DNA of 60,421 nt from Candidatus Sigynarchaeum calidifontis (GTDB lineage Archaea; Asgardarchaeota; Lokiarchaeia; Sigyniarchaeales; Sigyniarchaeaceae), in contig JAUQYZ020000072.1 of the NCBI GenBank assembly GCA_030587475.2, positions 1-60,421 of the forward strand. The letters are read 5' to 3'. Within the stretch, counting starts at the first letter, position 1; every line of letters starts with the position of its first letter. Positions 47,911 through 55,311 of this stretch are shown one piece after another. A program made the position numbers and the translations under genes. The notes below the pieces were generated by a model. That model searched no databases. It had not been told where the DNA came from and saw only the letters and a program-made list of their open reading frames with translations.

Positions 47911-49584
47911 TTACTGCGCCACGACGACCTTCTTGCCGAAGAGCACGGTCTTGGCGGTTTCGAAGGCAACGTCGTAGTTGAAGAGTTTCAAGCCCTTGGT
48001 GTCGGCAGCCGCCTTGAGCATGTTGGACTCCGTGATGTACTTGAGACCGCCGAGGGCGAGGGCACCCGTGCCGAAGATGCCCGGGTAGATCTCCTTGTCC
48101 TCGTACTTCGCCTTCATGCCATCGACGCCCGCCGGGGGCACCGCGTTGATGTCGACCACGAGCTTCGTGCCCTTGCCCGCGACCTTCTCCATGATCGCCT
48201 TGGACACGACCTGCACGCCGGCCGTCGCGACCGCCCAGATGATGTCGGCATCTTGCACGATCGGCAGTTTTTCCTCGTCGGTGACCGCGAATGCACCCTT
48301 GATCGGCACCGCGTCCTTGCCGGCCTCCGCGTTGAGCACGGCCGCGAGGGCCTCGATCGATTCCTTGGATGCCTTGTCCCACGTCTCCACGATCGTGACA
48401 TGGCATTTCTCCTTGGCCGCGATGATCGCGGCGATCTGGCCGACCGGGCCCGCGCCGAAGACCGCGACCTTCTTGACCGCGATGCCGTCCCAGCCGTGCT
48501 TGCCGGCCATCTCGACGGTCTTGGCGACCGTGGCGGACGCGGTCGTGTGCGACCCGCGGGGATCCGTGACGATGGGATGCTCGAAACCCGGGATGAGCGC
48601 CTTCTTTATTTGCTCGGCGACCTTGTCCGCTTCCTTGACGTTGGACCCGCCGACGAAGAAACAGGTGGGCGCGTCGGGCTTGCGGGAGAACATCGCGTCT
48701 TGTACCAGGCGCGTGACCTTGTCTGCCGTGACGCCCGAGAACGGGATCACGACGTTGAAGCCCGCGTCGTAGGCCATGTTGATGTCGAAGGGGGACGCGA
48801 ACGCGTCCGTGTCGAACATGTAGAGTATCTTTTCTTGCACGGATTTCGTCTTTACCTTTATCGGGCTAATTTCGAGAACGCTCTGCTTCAAAAAGTCCAC
48901 CACCGATGATGTTTCTGGCATAGACTTTACAGATTTCTTCATGTTGATCTTTGTCGTGGTAATTCCGAGCTGTTCGGCGAGCTCGCCAAATCCGTCGAAG
49001 TGGCTGGCATCGCAGAAGCACATTCCTGTCATGGAAGGGGCGTCGACCTTGCTCGCTTGCTCGAGGATGCCCATCATCATCCACGCCTCGCGGATCTTGC
49101 CGCGGATCGCGTCGACCTCCGCGTCGATCTCGGCCTTCAGGTACTCGGCGCGGACCATGATCTCTTGCCAGTTGGCTTTCTTGGTCTTGTCGCCGGATGC
49201 CTTGATCCTGGCCGCCTCGGCCATCAGGTCGGCGTGCATCGTCAAGGCCGGGTCGAGCACGGACACGAGGTATCCGAGCGCACTCTCGTCGATGTCCACC
49301 GCCTCGTGCGGGATCCCACGCTTCTTGAACACTTCAACGAGGGGATTGTCGAACAAGAATTCATCACGGGTTCGCATGCCGAGTTCTTCGACCGCGAACC
49401 GGGGCTTGTACTTGTCGATGAGCCCGATCGTGGCTTTGATGTATGCATCCGACACGATGCGCAAGTTCCAATCATCGTCAGCTGGTTTCGAGATGTCCCA
49501 CTTGACGGGGAACTCGGTCTCCACGAGCACGAGCTCGAGCTTCTTTTTCTTCAAGGGTTCGAGTTCAAGCGTCTTGATTGCCAT
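47911..49584 (-). CDS. mtdB: NAD(P)-dependent methylene-H4MPT dehydrogenase (MtdA/B/C family) fused to a ~245-aa N-terminal unknown domain
   Basis: ASPFDINMAYDAGF, VQDAMFSR, DPRGSHTTASA, GAGPVG, DINAVPPAGVDG, GALALGGLKY; GGAGG SD upstream. Confidence 0.85.
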   Translation of the reverse strand: MAIKTLELEPLKKKKLELVLVETEFPVKWDISKPADDDWNLRIVSDAYIKATIGLIDKYKPRFAVEELGMRTRDEFLFDNPLVEVFKKRGIPHEAVDIDESALGYLVSVLDPALTMHADLMAEAARIKASGDKTKKANWQEIMVRAEYLKAEIDAEVDAIRGKIREAWMMMGILEQASKVDAPSMTGMCFCDASHFDGFGELAEQLGITTTKINMKKSVKSMPETSSVVDFLKQSVLEISPIKVKTKSVQEKILYMFDTDAFASPFDINMAYDAGFNVVIPFSGVTADKVTRLVQDAMFSRKPDAPTCFFVGGSNVKEADKVAEQIKKALIPGFEHPIVTDPRGSHTTASATVAKTVEMAGKHGWDGIAVKKVAVFGAGPVGQIAAIIAAKEKCHVTIVETWDKASKESIEALAAVLNAEAGKDAVPIKGAFAVTDEEKLPIVQDADIIWAVATAGVQVVSKAIMEKVAGKGTKLVVDINAVPPAGVDGMKAKYEDKEIYPGIFGTGALALGGLKYITESNMLKAAADTKGLKLFNYDVAFETAKTVLFGKKVVVAQ

Positions 49585-49678
49585 TCGTGTTTGCCTCCTG
49601 CTTGTTTTCTTGTTTTGAGTTTTTTCGGTTTGGATTAATCTTGGATTGTCGTCCTGTGTTGGAATGTTGGAATAAAGT

Positions 49679-50293
49679 TCAGCTGAAGACGGCCTGGCTC
49701 ACGGTCTTTTGCTTCTTGCCGTCGAGCACCGCGACCTTGACATTGTCCACCGTGGCGAAGGCCGCCTTGAGCGCGGGCAAGTTCTTTTCCACGCCGAAGT
49801 GCAGCACGTAGACCTCGTCCTCGGCAAATTTCGCAGCGATGTCGAGAATCCGCTTGACCAGCCACTTGGGCTTGATCTCGGTCTCGAGCTTGGTTTCGAG
49901 CTCTTGTGCTTCCGACTTGAGCACGTCGATCCACGACGCCATGTTCTGCGCCATGGTGCTCGTCTTGTCGGCCAGCGCCTCGTACTCCTTCTCGAGGCTG
50001 GCGGCCTGCTCTTTCTTGTCGTCGATCTCCTGGCGCAAGTAGCCTGCAGCGAACTCGGGCACGTCGACGCCGTGGCTCTCGATCGGGCACTTGCCGATGA
50101 CCTTGACTAGGGACTTGGGGTTGAACTTCGACTCGCCTTCCATGTCGACCGTCACGAAGTCGAAGCTGTGTTCGTTCAAGACCTCCTCGCATAGATTGTA
50201 CCGTTGCTCGTTGAGCAAGGCATTGTTCTCTTTCTTCGTCAGGACCACGAAGATTGTCTTGTTTTCCGGGGTTTCGATGTTCAGGGTGTTCAT
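49679..50293 (-). CDS. Hypothetical protein, paralogue of the N-terminal domain of the Mtd fusion
   Basis: Collinear similarity with Mtd N-terminus (HGVDVPEFAAGYL vs EAVDIDESALGYL; IKPKWLVKRILDIAAK vs IREAWMMMGILEQASK). Confidence 0.75.
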   Translation of the reverse strand: MNTLNIETPENKTIFVVLTKKENNALLNEQRYNLCEEVLNEHSFDFVTVDMEGESKFNPKSLVKVIGKCPIESHGVDVPEFAAGYLRQEIDDKKEQAASLEKEYEALADKTSTMAQNMASWIDVLKSEAQELETKLETEIKPKWLVKRILDIAAKFAEDEVYVLHFGVEKNLPALKAAFATVDNVKVAVLDGKKQKTVSQAVFS

Positions 50294-50727
50294 GATCGTT
50301 CATTTGTTTTTTTGTTTTGTAGAGTTGGACTCTGCTTTAAACATGGTCGCACTAATTGATATGCACGTCGAAAATTCGTGTTTTACGTGTTGGACAATCC
50401 GGCTTGTCTTTTCGTGATCCTTGCTTTGGACTAAGTCTTGAGAGGTTATAATTGGATCTATGCTTGGTGGCTTTATCCGTGGTAACAAGAGCAATTGTCT
50501 ACCATAATATTCACGGCGCACGGGATTGATCTACTTTTTTTGGGGGACAAGCCGTTTTGTACATGGACATGATGCTCACTTTTCGAGAAACGGAGCCTTT
50601 CATGGTAATGGTTTCGAAGATGAACATGAGATGATGCATCCCGCGCTTTTTGTTTCGAAGACAAAAATATTTTTTACCGAGACAAGTAAAGTAGAGTACT
50701 GATAACGACACGCGACGAGGGATTCGA

Positions 50728-53220
50728 ATGGACATATACGAGGTGCTCTCCCACCCGATCCGACGTAGATTGCTCTTGCTGCTCGAACGCGATGGCTATT
50801 TGAAGCATTCCGAGCTCATGGACAAGCTCGCCATCGACAAGACCGGTATCCTCAATTTCCACCTCAAGCAGCTCGAAGAACTCGTCAGCAAGGAGCCAAA
50901 GACGAAAGCATATTACCTGTCCGAGATGGGCAAGGCCGTGATCCGCATCATCGACCTCAACGAGCGGCTACTCAAGGGGGAGGAATTACCCGCCGAGGCC
51001 ATCAAGAAGGGAGAAATCAGCCGTGTCGGCGTGATCACGTGTAACTGCACGGGGGAAGTGTCGGACTGCCTCGACATCAACGCCCTGGACGCGTATGCTC
51101 GCAAGATCCCTGGGGTCGTGTCGACTCGCGTGCTCGATAACCTGTGCCAGGAAAAATACCTCAAGGGGCTTCACCAGTGGTGCCGGGACAATTTCATCAA
51201 CAAGCTCGTCATCGCCGCTTGCTCGCCGAAAACGCACCAGCACGTGTTCGAGGTCATGTTCGACGGGGTCATCGACCGCCCGAATATCGAGATAGTGAAC
51301 ATCCGCGAGCAGTGCGCGTGGGTGCACCATGACGATGCGTACCGGGATCCAACGCTCAAGAAGGCCGAGGTTCTCATCGAGGCTGGCGTGGCACGTGTTA
51401 GCCTGCAAAAAATCATCAAGGTCAAGACGGTCCAGGTCGAGAAGAGCTGTGCCATCATTGGTGGTGGCATCGCGGGCATGACGCTCGCGCTCAACCTCGC
51501 CCGCGCTGGCTTGCAAGTGCACCTCATCGACAAGGCGCCGACTCTCGGGGGCATGGCAGCCAGGTGGAGCAAGATCCAGGGCATGGCAGATTGCTCGATC
51601 TGCTTCATTTCCGAGCTCATCGGCGAGCTCAAGAAGCAAAGAAACATCACGGTGCACACGAACACCAGGGTAGACAACATCAGCGGCGAGATCGGGAACT
51701 TCACGCTCGATCTCACCCGGGAACCGCGATTCGTGGATGTCGATCGATGCACGGGCTGTGGCCGGTGCACGCACATCTGCACGAAAGAGAAACCCGACCA
51801 GTACGAGCACGGCCTCGCCAAGCGCAAGCTCATCTACATCCCGTTCAGCCACGCGTATCCCTTCGCCGCGACCATCGACAAGGAGGACATCGATACTTGC
51901 AAGGATTGCCACATCTGCGAGCGTGCTTGCATCAACAAGGCAATAAACCTCGACCAGGAACCGGAAAAATTGCGGTTGAAGGTCGGCGCAAAGGTGATCG
52001 CGATCGGGGCCGAGCTCTACAAGGACTTGGCCGGTTTCCACCACGACCCGACCGATGATATCGTTACTGCGGCCGAGTTCGAGCGCATCTTGTCCTCGGA
52101 TGGCCCCACGGACGGCAAGCTCCTCCGGCTCTCGAACGATGAGCCACCCAAGACGGTCGCTTACATCCAGGGCATCGGCCCACGCTCCCTTGCCGGACAA
52201 GAAGGCGCGAACGACGTGCTGGACCAGCTGCTCGCCCGCAAGTACGAGGCCGCGGTCAAGGAACAAGTGCCGAAGGCATCATTCAAGGTGTACAATGCTC
52301 GGACCTCGAGGATCGAAAAAATGAACGGGGAAAAGCGTATCATCGACGCCAGCGGCAAGGCAAGCAAGGCAGACCTGATCATTCTCGGCACGGAGATCGT
52401 GCCCAACCCGGACGTGAAGGACTTGCGCAAGAAATTCGATTTCACGCTCGACGACTACGGGTTCATGAGCGAGGAGACGCTGTCATCCGGTATATTCGGT
52501 GTCGGGGCAGTCCTCGGGCCCCGATCTTACAAGGACGTGCTGTTCGGGGCAAACAAGGTCGCTCTTGATGTGATCGCGATGCTCTCCAAAGAAACCTTGG
52601 TCTCGGACTATACAGGCGCGGAAAACAACCAGGACAAGTGTGGCCTATGCGGCCTTTGCGCCCGGTCGTGTCCCTACAACGCGATCATGCTCACGAGTGA
52701 CCGGGTCATCATTGACAAGTTCAAGTGCAAATCTTGCGGCACGTGCACGAGCGTGTGCCCCACCGGCGCCATGGAATTGAACGTCGATTCGACGGACAAG
52801 ATCCTCAAGTCCATCGAGGTCATGGCAAAGTTCAAGGAATCGCCGAAGATCCTCGCGTTCTGCTGCAGGTCTTGCGGTTATGCCGCGGCGGACGATGCCG
52901 GCATCAAGCGTCTCTTGTACTCGCCCGGCGTGCTCATCATCCGCGTGCCATGCTCGGGCCGGGTCGATTCCAACTTCCTCATCACCGCGCTCGAGGCGGG
53001 TTTCGACGGGGTCATAGTCGTCGGGTGTAAAAAGGATGCTTGCCGGTACATAGATGGTTTCTACAAGGCCAAGCAGAAAGTCCAGCTCTTGCAGCAAGTG
53101 ATCGGCGAGGACGAGGCCGGGCGGATCTTGATCGAGTCCATGAGCGCCGTGGAAGGCAACAAGTTCGCGGAAGCAGTCAACGGCTTCTATAACAAGTTAA
53201 AGGGGGCGAGCGCCAATTAG
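50728..53220 (+). CDS. Fusion: ArsR-like winged helix + HdrA-like flavo-iron-sulfur protein + MvhD domain
   Basis: wHTH (LSHPIRRRLLLLL...LNFHLKQL...YYLSEMG); HdrA motifs (CNC, AACSP, NIREQCAWVH, GGGIAG, DCSIC, EFER, ferredoxin motifs); MvhD motifs (FCCRSCGYAAAD, RVPCSGRVD, GC-x4-C-x-Y). Confidence 0.9.
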   Translation: MDIYEVLSHPIRRRLLLLLERDGYLKHSELMDKLAIDKTGILNFHLKQLEELVSKEPKTKAYYLSEMGKAVIRIIDLNERLLKGEELPAEAIKKGEISRVGVITCNCTGEVSDCLDINALDAYARKIPGVVSTRVLDNLCQEKYLKGLHQWCRDNFINKLVIAACSPKTHQHVFEVMFDGVIDRPNIEIVNIREQCAWVHHDDAYRDPTLKKAEVLIEAGVARVSLQKIIKVKTVQVEKSCAIIGGGIAGMTLALNLARAGLQVHLIDKAPTLGGMAARWSKIQGMADCSICFISELIGELKKQRNITVHTNTRVDNISGEIGNFTLDLTREPRFVDVDRCTGCGRCTHICTKEKPDQYEHGLAKRKLIYIPFSHAYPFAATIDKEDIDTCKDCHICERACINKAINLDQEPEKLRLKVGAKVIAIGAELYKDLAGFHHDPTDDIVTAAEFERILSSDGPTDGKLLRLSNDEPPKTVAYIQGIGPRSLAGQEGANDVLDQLLARKYEAAVKEQVPKASFKVYNARTSRIEKMNGEKRIIDASGKASKADLIILGTEIVPNPDVKDLRKKFDFTLDDYGFMSEETLSSGIFGVGAVLGPRSYKDVLFGANKVALDVIAMLSKETLVSDYTGAENNQDKCGLCGLCARSCPYNAIMLTSDRVIIDKFKCKSCGTCTSVCPTGAMELNVDSTDKILKSIEVMAKFKESPKILAFCCRSCGYAAADDAGIKRLLYSPGVLIIRVPCSGRVDSNFLITALEAGFDGVIVVGCKKDACRYIDGFYKAKQKVQLLQQVIGEDEAGRILIESMSAVEGNKFAEAVNGFYNKLKGASAN

Positions 53221-53986
53221 ACCGAAGCTCATCCTCGCGTCGCTATCAGGCTGCTCCGGTTGCTTGTCCACCTTGTTTTCCATGGAGGTCTTGCGGGAGA
53301 TCCTCAACAAGTTCAACATCGTCCACGCGCCCTTCATCCTCGACCAGGTCTCTGTTCCAGAATCCGACATCGCGTTCGTCGAGGGCTGCGTTCTCGATGA
53401 CGAAAAGGCACAAGTCGAATACTTGAAGTCCATCCGAGAGAATGCAAAGAAAGTCATCGCTCTCGGGACGTGCGCCGCGTTCGGCGGGATCGCCAGCATG
53501 TCGCCGGGCAAGCGAGCAGACCCGATCGGCCGGTACATCGAAGTCGACGGCTTCATCCCCGGCTGCCCGCCACCGCCGGGCCTGTTGAACGATTCGGCCA
53601 TCAGGCTCATGGAAGGGAAGCGCATCGCGCTGTCCGACAGGAACCTTTGCTCGTCTTGCGAGCTTCGTGCAGAAAACATGACCGAATTCACGAAGCCTAT
53701 CGATTCGATACTCCCGGGCGTGACGACCCCGCTGGCAAAGCAAGGAACGTGCTTCCTCAAGGACGGAATCTTGTGCATGGGTCCCATGACCCGGGAAGGG
53801 TGCGAGGCGCGCTGCATCAAGAAGAACGTTCCTTGCGAGGGCTGCATGGGCCCGCCGTCGAAAGAATACACGGCGAACGTGGTGAATTTTTTCAGCATGC
53901 TGCCGCTGTCGCCCGACTTGAGGAATTACGAGGGGATCTTGTTTCGGTTCGGGAGGCCACGCATCAAGGGAGGCGCGAAGAAATGA
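53216..53986 (+). CDS. mvhG: [NiFe]-hydrogenase small subunit, group 3 (MvhG-like); no canonical start codon
   Basis: SGCSGC lies upstream of the ORF-track TTG at 53264; also EG, GTCAAFGG, PGCPP and C-terminal CMGP...C...C...PCEGCMGP. Start placed at ATT 53216. Confidence 0.85.
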   Translation: MRPKLILASLSGCSGCLSTLFSMEVLREILNKFNIVHAPFILDQVSVPESDIAFVEGCVLDDEKAQVEYLKSIRENAKKVIALGTCAAFGGIASMSPGKRADPIGRYIEVDGFIPGCPPPPGLLNDSAIRLMEGKRIALSDRNLCSSCELRAENMTEFTKPIDSILPGVTTPLAKQGTCFLKDGILCMGPMTREGCEARCIKKNVPCEGCMGPPSKEYTANVVNFFSMLPLSPDLRNYEGILFRFGRPRIKGGAKK

Positions 53987-55311
53987 GCGCGAACATCGAC
54001 ATCTGTACCCGTATCGAGGGCCATGCAACGATCGAGTACATCATATCGAAGAAGGAACTCACGGCGGTTAATTTTAAGACTGATGTCTTTCGAGGTTTCG
54101 AGGAAATCTTGAAAGGGAAGCACCGGCTCGATGCACCGCGAATCGCGAGCCGGATATGCGGGTTGTGCCATGCGTCGCAAGCCATCGCGAGTACCAGGGC
54201 AGTCGAGGCCATGCTAGGCCTCCAGCCAAGCCCATCCGCCAGGGTCATGCGTGCAGTGCTCATGTGCGGCGAGCTCGTGAAAAGCCACGCGCTCCATTTT
54301 TACTTCCAGGGCTTTCCAGACATCGCTGCCGTGTTCCATGGCAAGCAGCTCGGGCTTGAAAATCTCGTTCGAAACGATCCCGCGTTCACGCAATCCATGT
54401 TCGAGCTTGTCAAGCTTGGCAAGGACGTGTGCGAAGCTTTTGGAGGCCGTGAAATACATGCCATCTCGCCCGCCGTGGGTGGAAAATCGTTCACCATGTT
54501 CCCGAAGGAGATCACCCAAACCCGCAAAAACCTTGAAAAGATCCGCGAGATCTCCCGCCCGGTGCTCGATGATCTCCTGAACGATTACAAGGCCACCTCC
54601 CCCGTGGATGATTTCGCGTTCAAGAACGTGGCATACATGGCACTGACCAACAAGCCGGATGTCGACGGCATCTACCGCCAAGACGGCGAGCTCGCGGTCG
54701 AGCTTCCCAGCGGTTCCGTGAAGCGCGTGCCGCCTGACAAGTTCAAGGAGCTCATCTGGTCGGAGAAGGGATTGCGTGGGTACGAGACATCCATCGATGA
54801 AAGCATCGGCCTACTGGTCGGCCCGATGGCGCGCATGCGGCTCGGGGGGCTTGAAATTGACGATCCCGAGCTGAAAAAGTCATTCAACAGCGTTGCGGCG
54901 AAGTGGAAGGACAACATGTTCTTCAACTATGCCGTACAGATCCTCGACATCCACGAGAGCGCGTCGATGGCGCTGGGAATTCTTAGCGGCCTCTCGGGGG
55001 AAACGCCGGGACAGCAAGCCATTCCCGAAGTGCCGGCGAACGCCGAGGGCACCGGCATCGTCGAAGCACCACGCGGCACGCTCATCCACCACTATTCGTC
55101 GGGAACCGAGAACCGGCTCGGGGCGGTCGAACTCTACATCCCCACGAGGATGAACACGCCGCTCATCGACCGCATGCTCACGACCAGGTGCAAGGCACTG
55201 TCCGACAAGGGCTTCGCGATGGACGAGATCAAGCGCCGTGCGGCCATGATCGTGCGCACGTTCGATCCATGCATATCTTGCGCGACGCACGAGCTTCACG
55301 TGGTCGCTTGA
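53983..55311 (+). CDS. mvhA: [NiFe]-hydrogenase large subunit, group 3 (MvhA-like)
   Basis: TRIEGH, RGFE, L1 RICGLCHASQ, EAPRG, L2 DPCISCATH plus 6-aa tail; ATGA overlap and GGAGG SD. Confidence 0.92.
   Translation: MSANIDICTRIEGHATIEYIISKKELTAVNFKTDVFRGFEEILKGKHRLDAPRIASRICGLCHASQAIASTRAVEAMLGLQPSPSARVMRAVLMCGELVKSHALHFYFQGFPDIAAVFHGKQLGLENLVRNDPAFTQSMFELVKLGKDVCEAFGGREIHAISPAVGGKSFTMFPKEITQTRKNLEKIREISRPVLDDLLNDYKATSPVDDFAFKNVAYMALTNKPDVDGIYRQDGELAVELPSGSVKRVPPDKFKELIWSEKGLRGYETSIDESIGLLVGPMARMRLGGLEIDDPELKKSFNSVAAKWKDNMFFNYAVQILDIHESASMALGILSGLSGETPGQQAIPEVPANAEGTGIVEAPRGTLIHHYSSGTENRLGAVELYIPTRMNTPLIDRMLTTRCKALSDKGFAMDEIKRRAAMIVRTFDPCISCATHELHVVA

Follow-up and report, generated by a model that had tools for sequence, protein, structure and literature searches.

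A glutamine at the end of the L1 motif as a probable lineage marker of Asgard Mvh-like [NiFe]-hydrogenases

The L1 motif of [NiFe]-hydrogenase large subunits (C-x2-C-x3-H) usually ends in a histidine (His) that hydrogen-bonds the bridging cysteine. A 2015 study of the bacterial regulatory hydrogenase (RH), in the passages cited here, regards the bacterial H2 sensors as the sole [NiFe]-hydrogenases in which this His is not conserved, and says of the glutamine (Gln) that RH carries instead that it "seems not to be involved in H2 sensing" (PMC5665086); the cited part of another paper describes RH as being without a C-terminal extension (PMC8229454). In Asgard archaea, a three-gene hydrogenase cluster of Helarchaeota has been read, in the section cited, as an Mvh-Hdr-like energy-transferring complex (PMC6478937), and group 3c and Hdr genes are reported, in the excerpt cited, to be expressed in situ and are read there as bifurcating (PMC11291895), which does not imply that those enzymes belong to the clade described below. 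Here we describe a large subunit with Gln at the end of L1, encoded by such a cluster in contig JAUQYZ020000072.1 of Candidatus Sigynarchaeum calidifontis (assembly GCA_030587475.2), positions 1 to 60,421 of which, on the forward strand, are called the window.

An earlier reading, made from the letters of this contig alone, had reported that L1 of the protein (P0003) is RICGLCHASQ, with Gln in place of the His, and that L2 (DPCISCATH) is intact and followed by a tail of only six residues, ELHVVA. The translation bears out both statements exactly (Table 1), with Gln66 encoded by CAA (54178-54180). The same reading took the Gln as independent support for a sensory role. Our comparisons favour another view, in which Gln66 is probably a fixed, clade-defining substitution in the second sphere of the active site, a marker of lineage and not of sensing. 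The lineage itself is, with moderate confidence, an Asgard-specific branch of Mvh-like [NiFe]-hydrogenases of group 3, assigned to 3c by context, of which the window's protein is a divergent member.

Distribution and phylogeny of the L1 glutamine

The large subunit matches Pfam family PF00374 with an E-value of 7.3e-28 and 98.2 bits, against a curated cut-off of 25.8, and the metal ligands of L1 and L2, the R-x-E-G-H residues of L0 and the arginine of the PRG motif are all present (C59, C62, C430, C433, R10, E12, H14 and R364). The His that would complete C-x2-C-x3-H is the residue missing, with Gln66 standing in its place. With Gln in HoxC, the large subunit of RH, and Tyr in 13 of 150 group-3 representatives, the L1-terminal His is, on the sequences compared, a frequent but non-defining feature of PF00374 large subunits. 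Comparison with PDB entries returned MvhA chains as the best solved relatives (5odc_F, E 2e-45; 9sw2_F, E 5.6e-42). The top NCBIfam match was ShyA (E 1e-41), and the VhuA model scored 110 bits against a cut-off of 800.

Among the 120 cluster representatives nearest to the window's protein, itself included, L1 ends in Gln in 117 and in His in two (P0054 and P0087), the last (P0015) being a fragment without the region. Conservation across the 117 Gln types is nearly complete, with the four metal-binding cysteines, Arg10 and Arg364 found in all of them, Glu12 in 116 and His14 in 109. Every representative of the 120 with a named source is Asgard (Loki-, Prometh-, Sigyn-, Hod-, Thor-, Heimdall-, Hel- or Odinarchaeota). 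When 50%-identity representatives from all life were searched exhaustively, 2944 matches were obtained, and in the best 150 of these, all group 3, L1 ends in His in 120, Tyr in 13 and Gln in nine, with the motif not found in eight. Each of the nine Gln types is related to the Asgard clade, either as a top match or as a fragment of that kind, so the possibility raised in the sequence-only reading that Gln is common in ordinary metabolic group 3 enzymes is not borne out.

Across distinct genomic loci, the Gln codon is CAA in 28 and CAG in 4, and the His codon is CAC in the four His loci; His and Gln codons differ by a single third-position change. Because the Gln has been kept across divergent proteins (30-38% identical to the window's) though one wobble change would turn it into His, Gln66 is, to judge from codons and alignments, kept by selection.

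We also surveyed 400 species genomes of the Asgard phylum. Matches at E ≤ 1e-20 occur in 335 of them, and about 100 matches at E ≤ 3.5e-70 fall in 99 genomes (counted by hand from the table), or roughly a quarter; the 30 best loci, checked for L1, all have Gln at its end. None of the relatives with at least 46% identity lies outside the window's own family (G281, 79%; G280, 46%). Family f3, of the same order (14 genomes), has distant matches only, the best at 4e-41, and the Gln clade is therefore not universal in the order. The genomic context of the two His proteins, P0054 and P0087, was sought among the 400 genomes without finding a counterpart (best 57% identity). A search for relatives of P0087 returned none, and the relatives of P0054 are only 45-60% identical, at least three of them being Gln-type contigs that had already been sampled.

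These data bear directly on whether the Gln could be an artefact, be it a sequencing or assembly error, a variant of a single genome (both feared in the sequence-only reading) or the mark of a decaying pseudogene. The one base that separates Gln from His would make such an error easy, and the tail ELHVVA is unlike the LVTKRP/LVTHRP-type tails of the closest relatives, but the reading frame is uninterrupted and none of the catalytic residues has been lost. With the Gln present in 117 of the 120 relatives, both of its synonymous codons in use and an identical L1 in the 79%-identical orthologue from the same genus (G281), we regard this explanation as refuted and its probability as vanishingly small.

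The protein was placed in two trees. The first, built with FastTree from 199 rows, included all of the 16 proteins P0003-P0018 except the fragment P0015, 40 of the 104 main-clade representatives P0019-P0122 and the all-life proteins of at least 380 amino acids (aa), together with HoxC, HoxG and the Vhu-like gene of the window's genome. The second was a quick IQ-TREE run under LG+C20 with 57 rows and support from the Shimodaira-Hasegawa-like approximate likelihood-ratio test (SH-aLRT) only. The Gln types form one clade of 57 rows in the FastTree tree (SH-like support 99), and the same clade is recovered under LG+C20 with SH-aLRT 100, where it holds 26 Gln proteins and two His proteins nested beside a Gln protein. 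In both trees His-type sisters lie outside the clade, those with RICGLCSSAH (L058, L060, P0123) being followed by those with KICGFCSAAH (L061, P0126). The window's subclade is nested within the Gln clade on a long stem (0.8), and the Helarchaeota representative P0062 (RICGLCHVAQ, 11-aa tail) also falls within it. The Asgard lineage as a whole is separate from a long-tailed Mvh-like clade and from a 3b/3d-like clade, at deep nodes that are weak. HoxC pairs with HoxG outside all group-3 rows with support 100.

The second sister branch (L061:7959-9308 (-), P0126 and P0186) has peculiarities of its own, in that L1 opens with Lys in place of Arg (KICGFCSAAH) and L2 lacks its terminal His (DPCISCSSV..., DPCIPCAAL); the L061 gene nevertheless still stands behind the HdrA fusion gene described below.

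Pocket residues, C-terminus and gene neighbourhood

We compared the 117 Gln-clade proteins with 126 other group-3 representatives and retained positions at which a residue reaches at least 85% in the clade and at most 12% elsewhere. Cys8 is Cys in 99% of the clade, where the others have Leu, Ile or Val. Leu61 is clade-typical, with Ile in 64% of the others, and so is Gln66, with His in 90% and Tyr in 10% elsewhere; Gln109 is found in 96% of the clade, and Leu in 81% of the others. The residue after the second L1 cysteine is His in 84 and Tyr in 31 of the Gln types (115 of 117), and 104 of the 133 representatives without Gln have Ser or Pro there. The His revertants P0054 and P0087 retain both Cys8 and Gln109. 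Because it travels with Cys8, Leu61, His/Tyr63 and Gln109, Gln66 is, as far as these alignments tell, one element of a remodelled pocket. From the alignment to HoxG and HoxC, we take positions 61 and 109 to be the Val74/Leu122 pair of D. fructosovorans. The HoxC counterparts, I62 and F110, are said to narrow the gas channel, in work by Buhrke and colleagues from 2005. Bulky substitutions at the D. fructosovorans pair likewise narrow the channel, according to the cited part of a preprint (bioRxiv 10.1101/2025.11.19.689374).

The C-terminus was examined in the 119 relatives that have both L1 and L2. While 103 of them end at the L2 His, 16 have tails of 5-11 aa, and these 16 make up the window's subclade and a Helarchaeota-type branch. 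In 141 other group-3 representatives the commonest state is a tail of 1-12 aa (65 proteins), followed by 13-40 aa (46), no tail (15) and more than 40 aa (2), with L2 not found in 13. Soluble hydrogenase I (SHI) of P. furiosus is activated by the removal of just four residues, as stated in the passage cited (PMC2865534), and the window's genome encodes one HycI-family protease, on contig C230. Since short tails are ordinary in group 3 and one of four residues is cleaved in SHI, the six-residue tail is, by this comparison, uninformative on sensing or processing, and the suggestion that its shortness is a sensor-type sign is not supported. The tails of the window's subclade resemble the short ones usual in group 3, and the loss of the extension in most other Gln-clade members implies that maturation there would proceed without a protease. 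In two further proteins, P0210 and P0252, a protease-like domain is fused to the C-terminus of the large subunit.

The small subunit and a multidomain fusion protein are encoded directly upstream of the large subunit (Table 1). The fusion protein begins with a winged helix-turn-helix (wHTH) domain, with Pfam matches to DUF7347 (E 5e-8, residues 2-75), HTH_20, Fer4 and FlpD (E 2.8e-36, residues 708-825) and an NCBIfam match to HdrA2 (E 3.8e-166, residues 99-522) that falls short of the equivalog cut-off. The small subunit has 12 cysteines, enough for three clusters as read from translations, and its start is unusual. No ATG, GTG or TTG lies between the upstream stop (53198-53200) and the SGCSGC cluster motif, the first TTG coming after that motif. 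An ATT at 53216-53218 overlaps the TAG stop of the HdrA gene, has AGGGGG 9 nt upstream and sits where relatives have ATG, TTG or GTG followed by AAA; ATT AGR CCN is also found in G281 and G280, and ATC in L057. The small subunit probably uses a non-canonical start with translational coupling.

Table 1. Positions in the window of the hydrogenase genes and active-site features, with aligned residues of HoxC and HoxG
Feature	Positions	Strand	Basis	HoxC	HoxG
Fusion protein, 830 aa: N-terminal ArsR-type wHTH, HdrA-like flavoprotein, 2x[4Fe-4S] ferredoxin domain, MvhD (FlpD)	50728..53220	+	Pfam, NCBIfam		
Small subunit, MvhG/VhuG-like, probable non-canonical ATT start	53216..53986	+	Oxidored_q6 E 1.7e-20; VhuG E 1.3e-31, below cut-off		
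[NiFe]-hydrogenase large subunit (P0003), 442 aa	53983..55311	+	ATG 53983, stop 55309-55311; profile and PDB matches		
Cys8, clade-specific, two residues ahead of the L0 motif	54004..54006	+	alignment comparison		
L0 motif RIEGH: Arg10, proton-gate Glu12, His14	54010..54024	+	translation, clade conservation	E13 (E12)	E27 (E12)
L1 motif RICGLCHASQ, residues 57-66: metal ligands Cys59 and Cys62, Leu61, His63, Gln66	54151..54180	+	translation	I62 (L61), Q67 (Q66)	V77 (L61), H82 (Q66)
Gln109 at the gas-channel gate residue position	54307..54309	+	alignment	F110	L125
Arg364 of the PRG motif above the active site	55072..55074	+	R in 117/117 clade members; alignment	R411	R530
L2 motif DPCISCATH: Cys430, Cys433, His436	55264..55290	+	translation		
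C-terminal tail ELHVVA, six residues	55291..55308	+	translation		

Twenty relative loci were searched with the window's own domains; several are close kin, so the counts are not independent. L1 ends in Gln at 16 of them and in His at four. A full wHTH-HdrA-ferredoxin-MvhD gene lies directly upstream of the small and large subunits at 13 of the Gln loci, the exceptions being L047, which is cut by a contig end, L044, with a partial MvhD, and L050, with no HdrA fusion. The same fusion stands at three of the four His-type loci (L058, L060 and L061, all of the Asgard lineage) and is missing from the 3b-like L062, which brings the synteny to 16 of the 20 loci (13 Gln, 3 His). The co-occurrence of Gln with wHTH-HdrA neighbours that the sequence-only reading had proposed to look for is thus real, but it is not specific to Gln, being seen at all three His-type sisters as well. 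The fusion architecture is therefore older than the His-to-Gln change, and a role for the wHTH gains nothing independent from the Gln. At L044, a major facilitator superfamily transporter gene lies ahead of what remains of MvhD.

Over the 130 nt that precede the fusion gene's start, identity to the same-genus genome G281 is about 93%, as against about 60% farther upstream. Within 50550-50727 of the window, the palindrome TTTGTTTCGAAGACAAA (50649-50665) and the repeat GTTTCGAAGA (at 50611) are candidate operator sites. The hexamer GACAAA is present upstream of 7 of 14 orthologues against 1.2 expected, on a mostly coding background that makes a weak control, and its enrichment is a lead only.

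Genes around the unit and its relatives are redox-metabolic, encoding FrhB-like proteins and a second HdrA (beside L054 and L056), MvhD and ferredoxin (also in L054), an Mpt_N protein, and a molybdopterin oxidoreductase (in L061). Upstream of the unit in the window is a divergent pair (47911-50303 (-)), consisting of an Mpt_N protein of 557 aa and a 222-aa protein without a Pfam match. The same pair recurs in distant Asgard families at L045:2664-5019, L060:1949-4343 and L057:1995-4405, with the Mpt_N gene in two pieces at the last of these. Mpt_N is the N-terminal domain of methylene-H4MPT dehydrogenase, and the divergent pair may be the missing redox partner. The second HdrA of family f4, about 31% identical, is encoded at L054:14000-15829 (+) and L056:1218-2636 (-); at L054 it is split into two open reading frames by an in-frame stop, possibly selenocysteine, and an MvhD copy on contig C47 of the window's own genome has one TGA inside.

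A histidine kinase was considered as a conserved partner and rejected, with a HATPase_c protein within 3 kb at just three of the 20 loci and none in the neighbourhood in the window. At L054 (7559-8620 (-), family f4) the gene immediately downstream of that for the large subunit encodes the HATPase_c membrane protein, which is about 3 kb away at L051 and L052; at L045 and L046 its membrane part is found alone. Elsewhere in the window's genome, which is 89% complete, there is one other PF00374 locus, a VhuA-like gene with RICGICPVPH (C117:3156-4550 (-)) beside FdhA-like and FdhD-like genes on a 5-kb contig. Its reading frame stops before L2, which suggests a split VhuU-type C-terminal piece.

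Function of the Gln-type enzyme

We think it fairly likely that the Gln-type enzyme is a catalytically intact, Mvh-like metabolic hydrogenase that is coupled to HdrA and has a retuned pocket. It is read as intact because the four metal-binding cysteines, the proton-gate Glu, the active-site Arg and the cysteines of a three-cluster small subunit are all present. By analogy with methanogen MvhADG-HdrA, H2 would be split or made at the NiFe site, and electrons would run from the small-subunit clusters to the [2Fe-2S] cluster of MvhD and on to the HdrA flavin, where bifurcation or confurcation would serve ferredoxin and a second partner. Gln66, in the place of His, would act together with Leu61, His/Tyr63, Gln109 and Cys8 to retune the redox properties of the pocket and its gas access.

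Several points weigh against this reading. The deep branching between the Asgard lineage, canonical 3c and 3b/3d is weak in both trees. Traits that resemble those of sensors coincide in the clade, namely the L1 Gln, the mostly absent extension and the non-standard residues at both gas-gate positions. At L044, the small and large subunits of G280 (G280:C1:447000-449600) are kept with an MvhD remnant of just the last 61 residues, the HdrA fusion appearing to have been lost, and no HdrA lies near L050 in G123. Neither HdrB nor HdrC was found in the neighbourhood in the window or at eight annotated relative loci, no genome-wide search having been made. The wHTH is absent from the other HdrA paralogues of the window's genome, which are located on at least six other contigs, and its confinement to the hydrogenase-linked HdrA is left unexplained by plain metabolism. 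Lastly, the ATT start in the window's family suggests low translation.

One alternative is a dedicated H2 sensor, in which a low-turnover, RH-like hydrogenase would set the redox state of the flavin and iron-sulfur (FeS) clusters of HdrA and thereby DNA binding by the wHTH, regulating genes of hydrogen or redox metabolism. We consider this unlikely. The L1 Gln is indeed that of the real HoxC, but in RH itself it is reported, in the passage cited, not to be involved in sensing (PMC5665086); here it is a trait of the whole clade, and the wHTH-HdrA unit also accompanies the His-type sisters L058, L060 and L061, so the claim that Gln independently supports a sensor falls away. The gas-gate residues L61 and Q109 are non-standard at both positions without being the Ile and Phe of RH, and the RH signature D15 is absent. 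That 103 of 119 relatives end at the L2 His as HoxC does, that no other HdrA of the genome has the wHTH, that the region upstream of the fusion is conserved around the TTTGTTTCGAAGACAAA palindrome and that the small subunit probably starts at ATT would all suit a sensor, but an entire HdrA protein of 830 aa, with FAD and a number of FeS domains, would be heavy machinery for one. Furthermore, about a quarter of the 400 Asgard genomes have the unit, often beside other Hdr/FrhB redox genes, and it has no conserved kinase partner, with the HATPase_c protein near three of 20 loci and its membrane part alone at two more. The bolder form of the proposal, in which the whole Asgard clade would be an H2-responsive gene switch, is improbable. 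In it an RH-like module, marked by the L1 Gln, the polar gas-gate Gln109 and the lack of a cleavable extension, would pass electrons from ambient H2 to the HdrA flavin, whose redox state would govern how the wHTH binds palindromes upstream of its own operon. Were it true, the switch would be the first archaeal H2 sensor, with an output principle unlike the bacterial HoxBC-HoxJ-HoxA cascade, and models of eukaryote origins give a central place to the hydrogen metabolism of the lineage in which it would sit.

The two roles could also be combined. PutA is a flavoenzyme that is also a repressor, and by analogy a working hydrogenase/HdrA complex might autoregulate its own operon through the wHTH of HdrA, with Gln66 serving catalytic tuning only. 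All of the evidence for an intact, HdrA-wired enzyme is shared by this possibility, and the operon-specific wHTH and the conserved upstream palindrome and repeat would be accounted for; the footprinting, however, comes from one same-genus pair and the GACAAA enrichment is weak, and we consider the combination doubtful.

In the literature searched, which included few subscription journals and no supplements, we found no description of an L1 Gln in Asgard hydrogenases or of a wHTH on HdrA, and within that literature the Gln is, on the present alignments, a clade-wide and previously unremarked active-site variant of Asgard Mvh-like hydrogenases. It makes a second, independent and much larger natural group with L1 Gln besides the bacterial H2 sensors, one in which the gas-channel gate and the residue beside the bridging Cys have changed as well. 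Enzymes of this clade are usually entered in Asgard reconstructions as ordinary bifurcating Mvh-Hdr complexes, and these reconstructions are an input to models of eukaryogenesis based on hydrogen. If catalytic bias, turnover or tolerance to O2 or CO is altered by the changes in the pocket, or if the complex senses H2, the reconstructions need revision. The Gln types, the two His revertants and the His-type sisters with the same operon architecture also offer a natural test set for the His/Gln position.

Comparison with described hydrogenases

The sensor subunits of the HoxC/HupV type (group 2b) were compared through HoxC of Cupriavidus necator H16 (plasmid pHG1), with HoxG of the same strain as reference (L1 RICGVCTGCH, 15-aa tail). 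HoxC has L1 RVCGICSVSQ and ends at DPCMVCTVH, which confirms on a real sequence the sequence-only statement that such subunits carry the Gln and are without an extension. The window's protein shares with HoxC the Gln (Q66 and Q67), non-standard residues at both gas-gate positions, and the retained proton-gate Glu and active-site Arg, and most Gln-clade members also share the lack of an extension. In contrast, HoxC has D15 at the position of the L0 His, where the window has H14 and the clade His in 109 of 117; its gate pair is Ile/Phe (I62, F110) where the window has Leu/Gln (L61, Q109); it ends at the L2 His where the window's protein has six more residues; and its partner is a HoxJ-type histidine kinase in place of a wHTH-HdrA-MvhD fusion. 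A variant HoxC(D15H) is mentioned in the cited part of a further study (PMC10073562). Because the two proteins are just 20% identical and the trees place HoxC far away, with HoxG and outside group 3, the likeness in Gln is convergent. The idea that the enzyme has converged on a sensory-type site is partly supported, with the L1 Gln shared and D15 and the Ile/Phe gate pair absent.

Group 3b enzymes, such as P. furiosus SHI and those of actinobacteria, resemble the window's protein in their short tails, in ShyA being its top NCBIfam match, and in having a natural residue other than His at the same L1 position, namely the Tyr of 13 of the 150 representatives (for example that of Rhodococcus sp. 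DK17, plasmid pDK1). They belong to another clade, have NAD(P)-linked partners in place of HdrA and MvhD, and show His or Tyr, never Gln. The Tyr types (P0146, P0148, P0152 and others) read RICGICPVAY, and the gene of the Rhodococcus plasmid enzyme (L076:3459-4751) is accompanied by NAD(P)/FAD partner genes and an adjoining maturation protease.

The cluster described in Helarchaeota consists of the same trio, HydB/Nqo4-like, Oxidored_q6 and an FeS disulfide reductase with an FlpD domain. In the part of that paper cited, a possibly membrane-associated complex is proposed, and the L1 Gln, the gate Gln and the wHTH go unmentioned (PMC6478937).

The closest solved systems remain those of methanogens, MvhA/VhuA of the group 3c MvhAGD-HdrABC complexes (PDB 5ODC and 9SW2). 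They are the best solved relatives and align over the full length, with L0, the L1 cysteines, PRG and L2 all present; the window's small subunit is nearest to VhuG, and an MvhD domain and HdrA are encoded alongside. MvhA differs in its L1 His (CQVAH, CDVQH) where the window has Gln, in Leu where the window has Gln109, and in the tails of its canonical clade, which are 20-34 aa long against 0-11 aa in the Gln clade. At the level of the operon, the window has no HdrBC adjoining, and a single polypeptide combines HdrA, ferredoxin and MvhD and has an additional wHTH at its N-terminus. The VhuA score of the large subunit is far below the cut-off, and in both trees it falls in a separate clade, whose deep placement is weakly supported.

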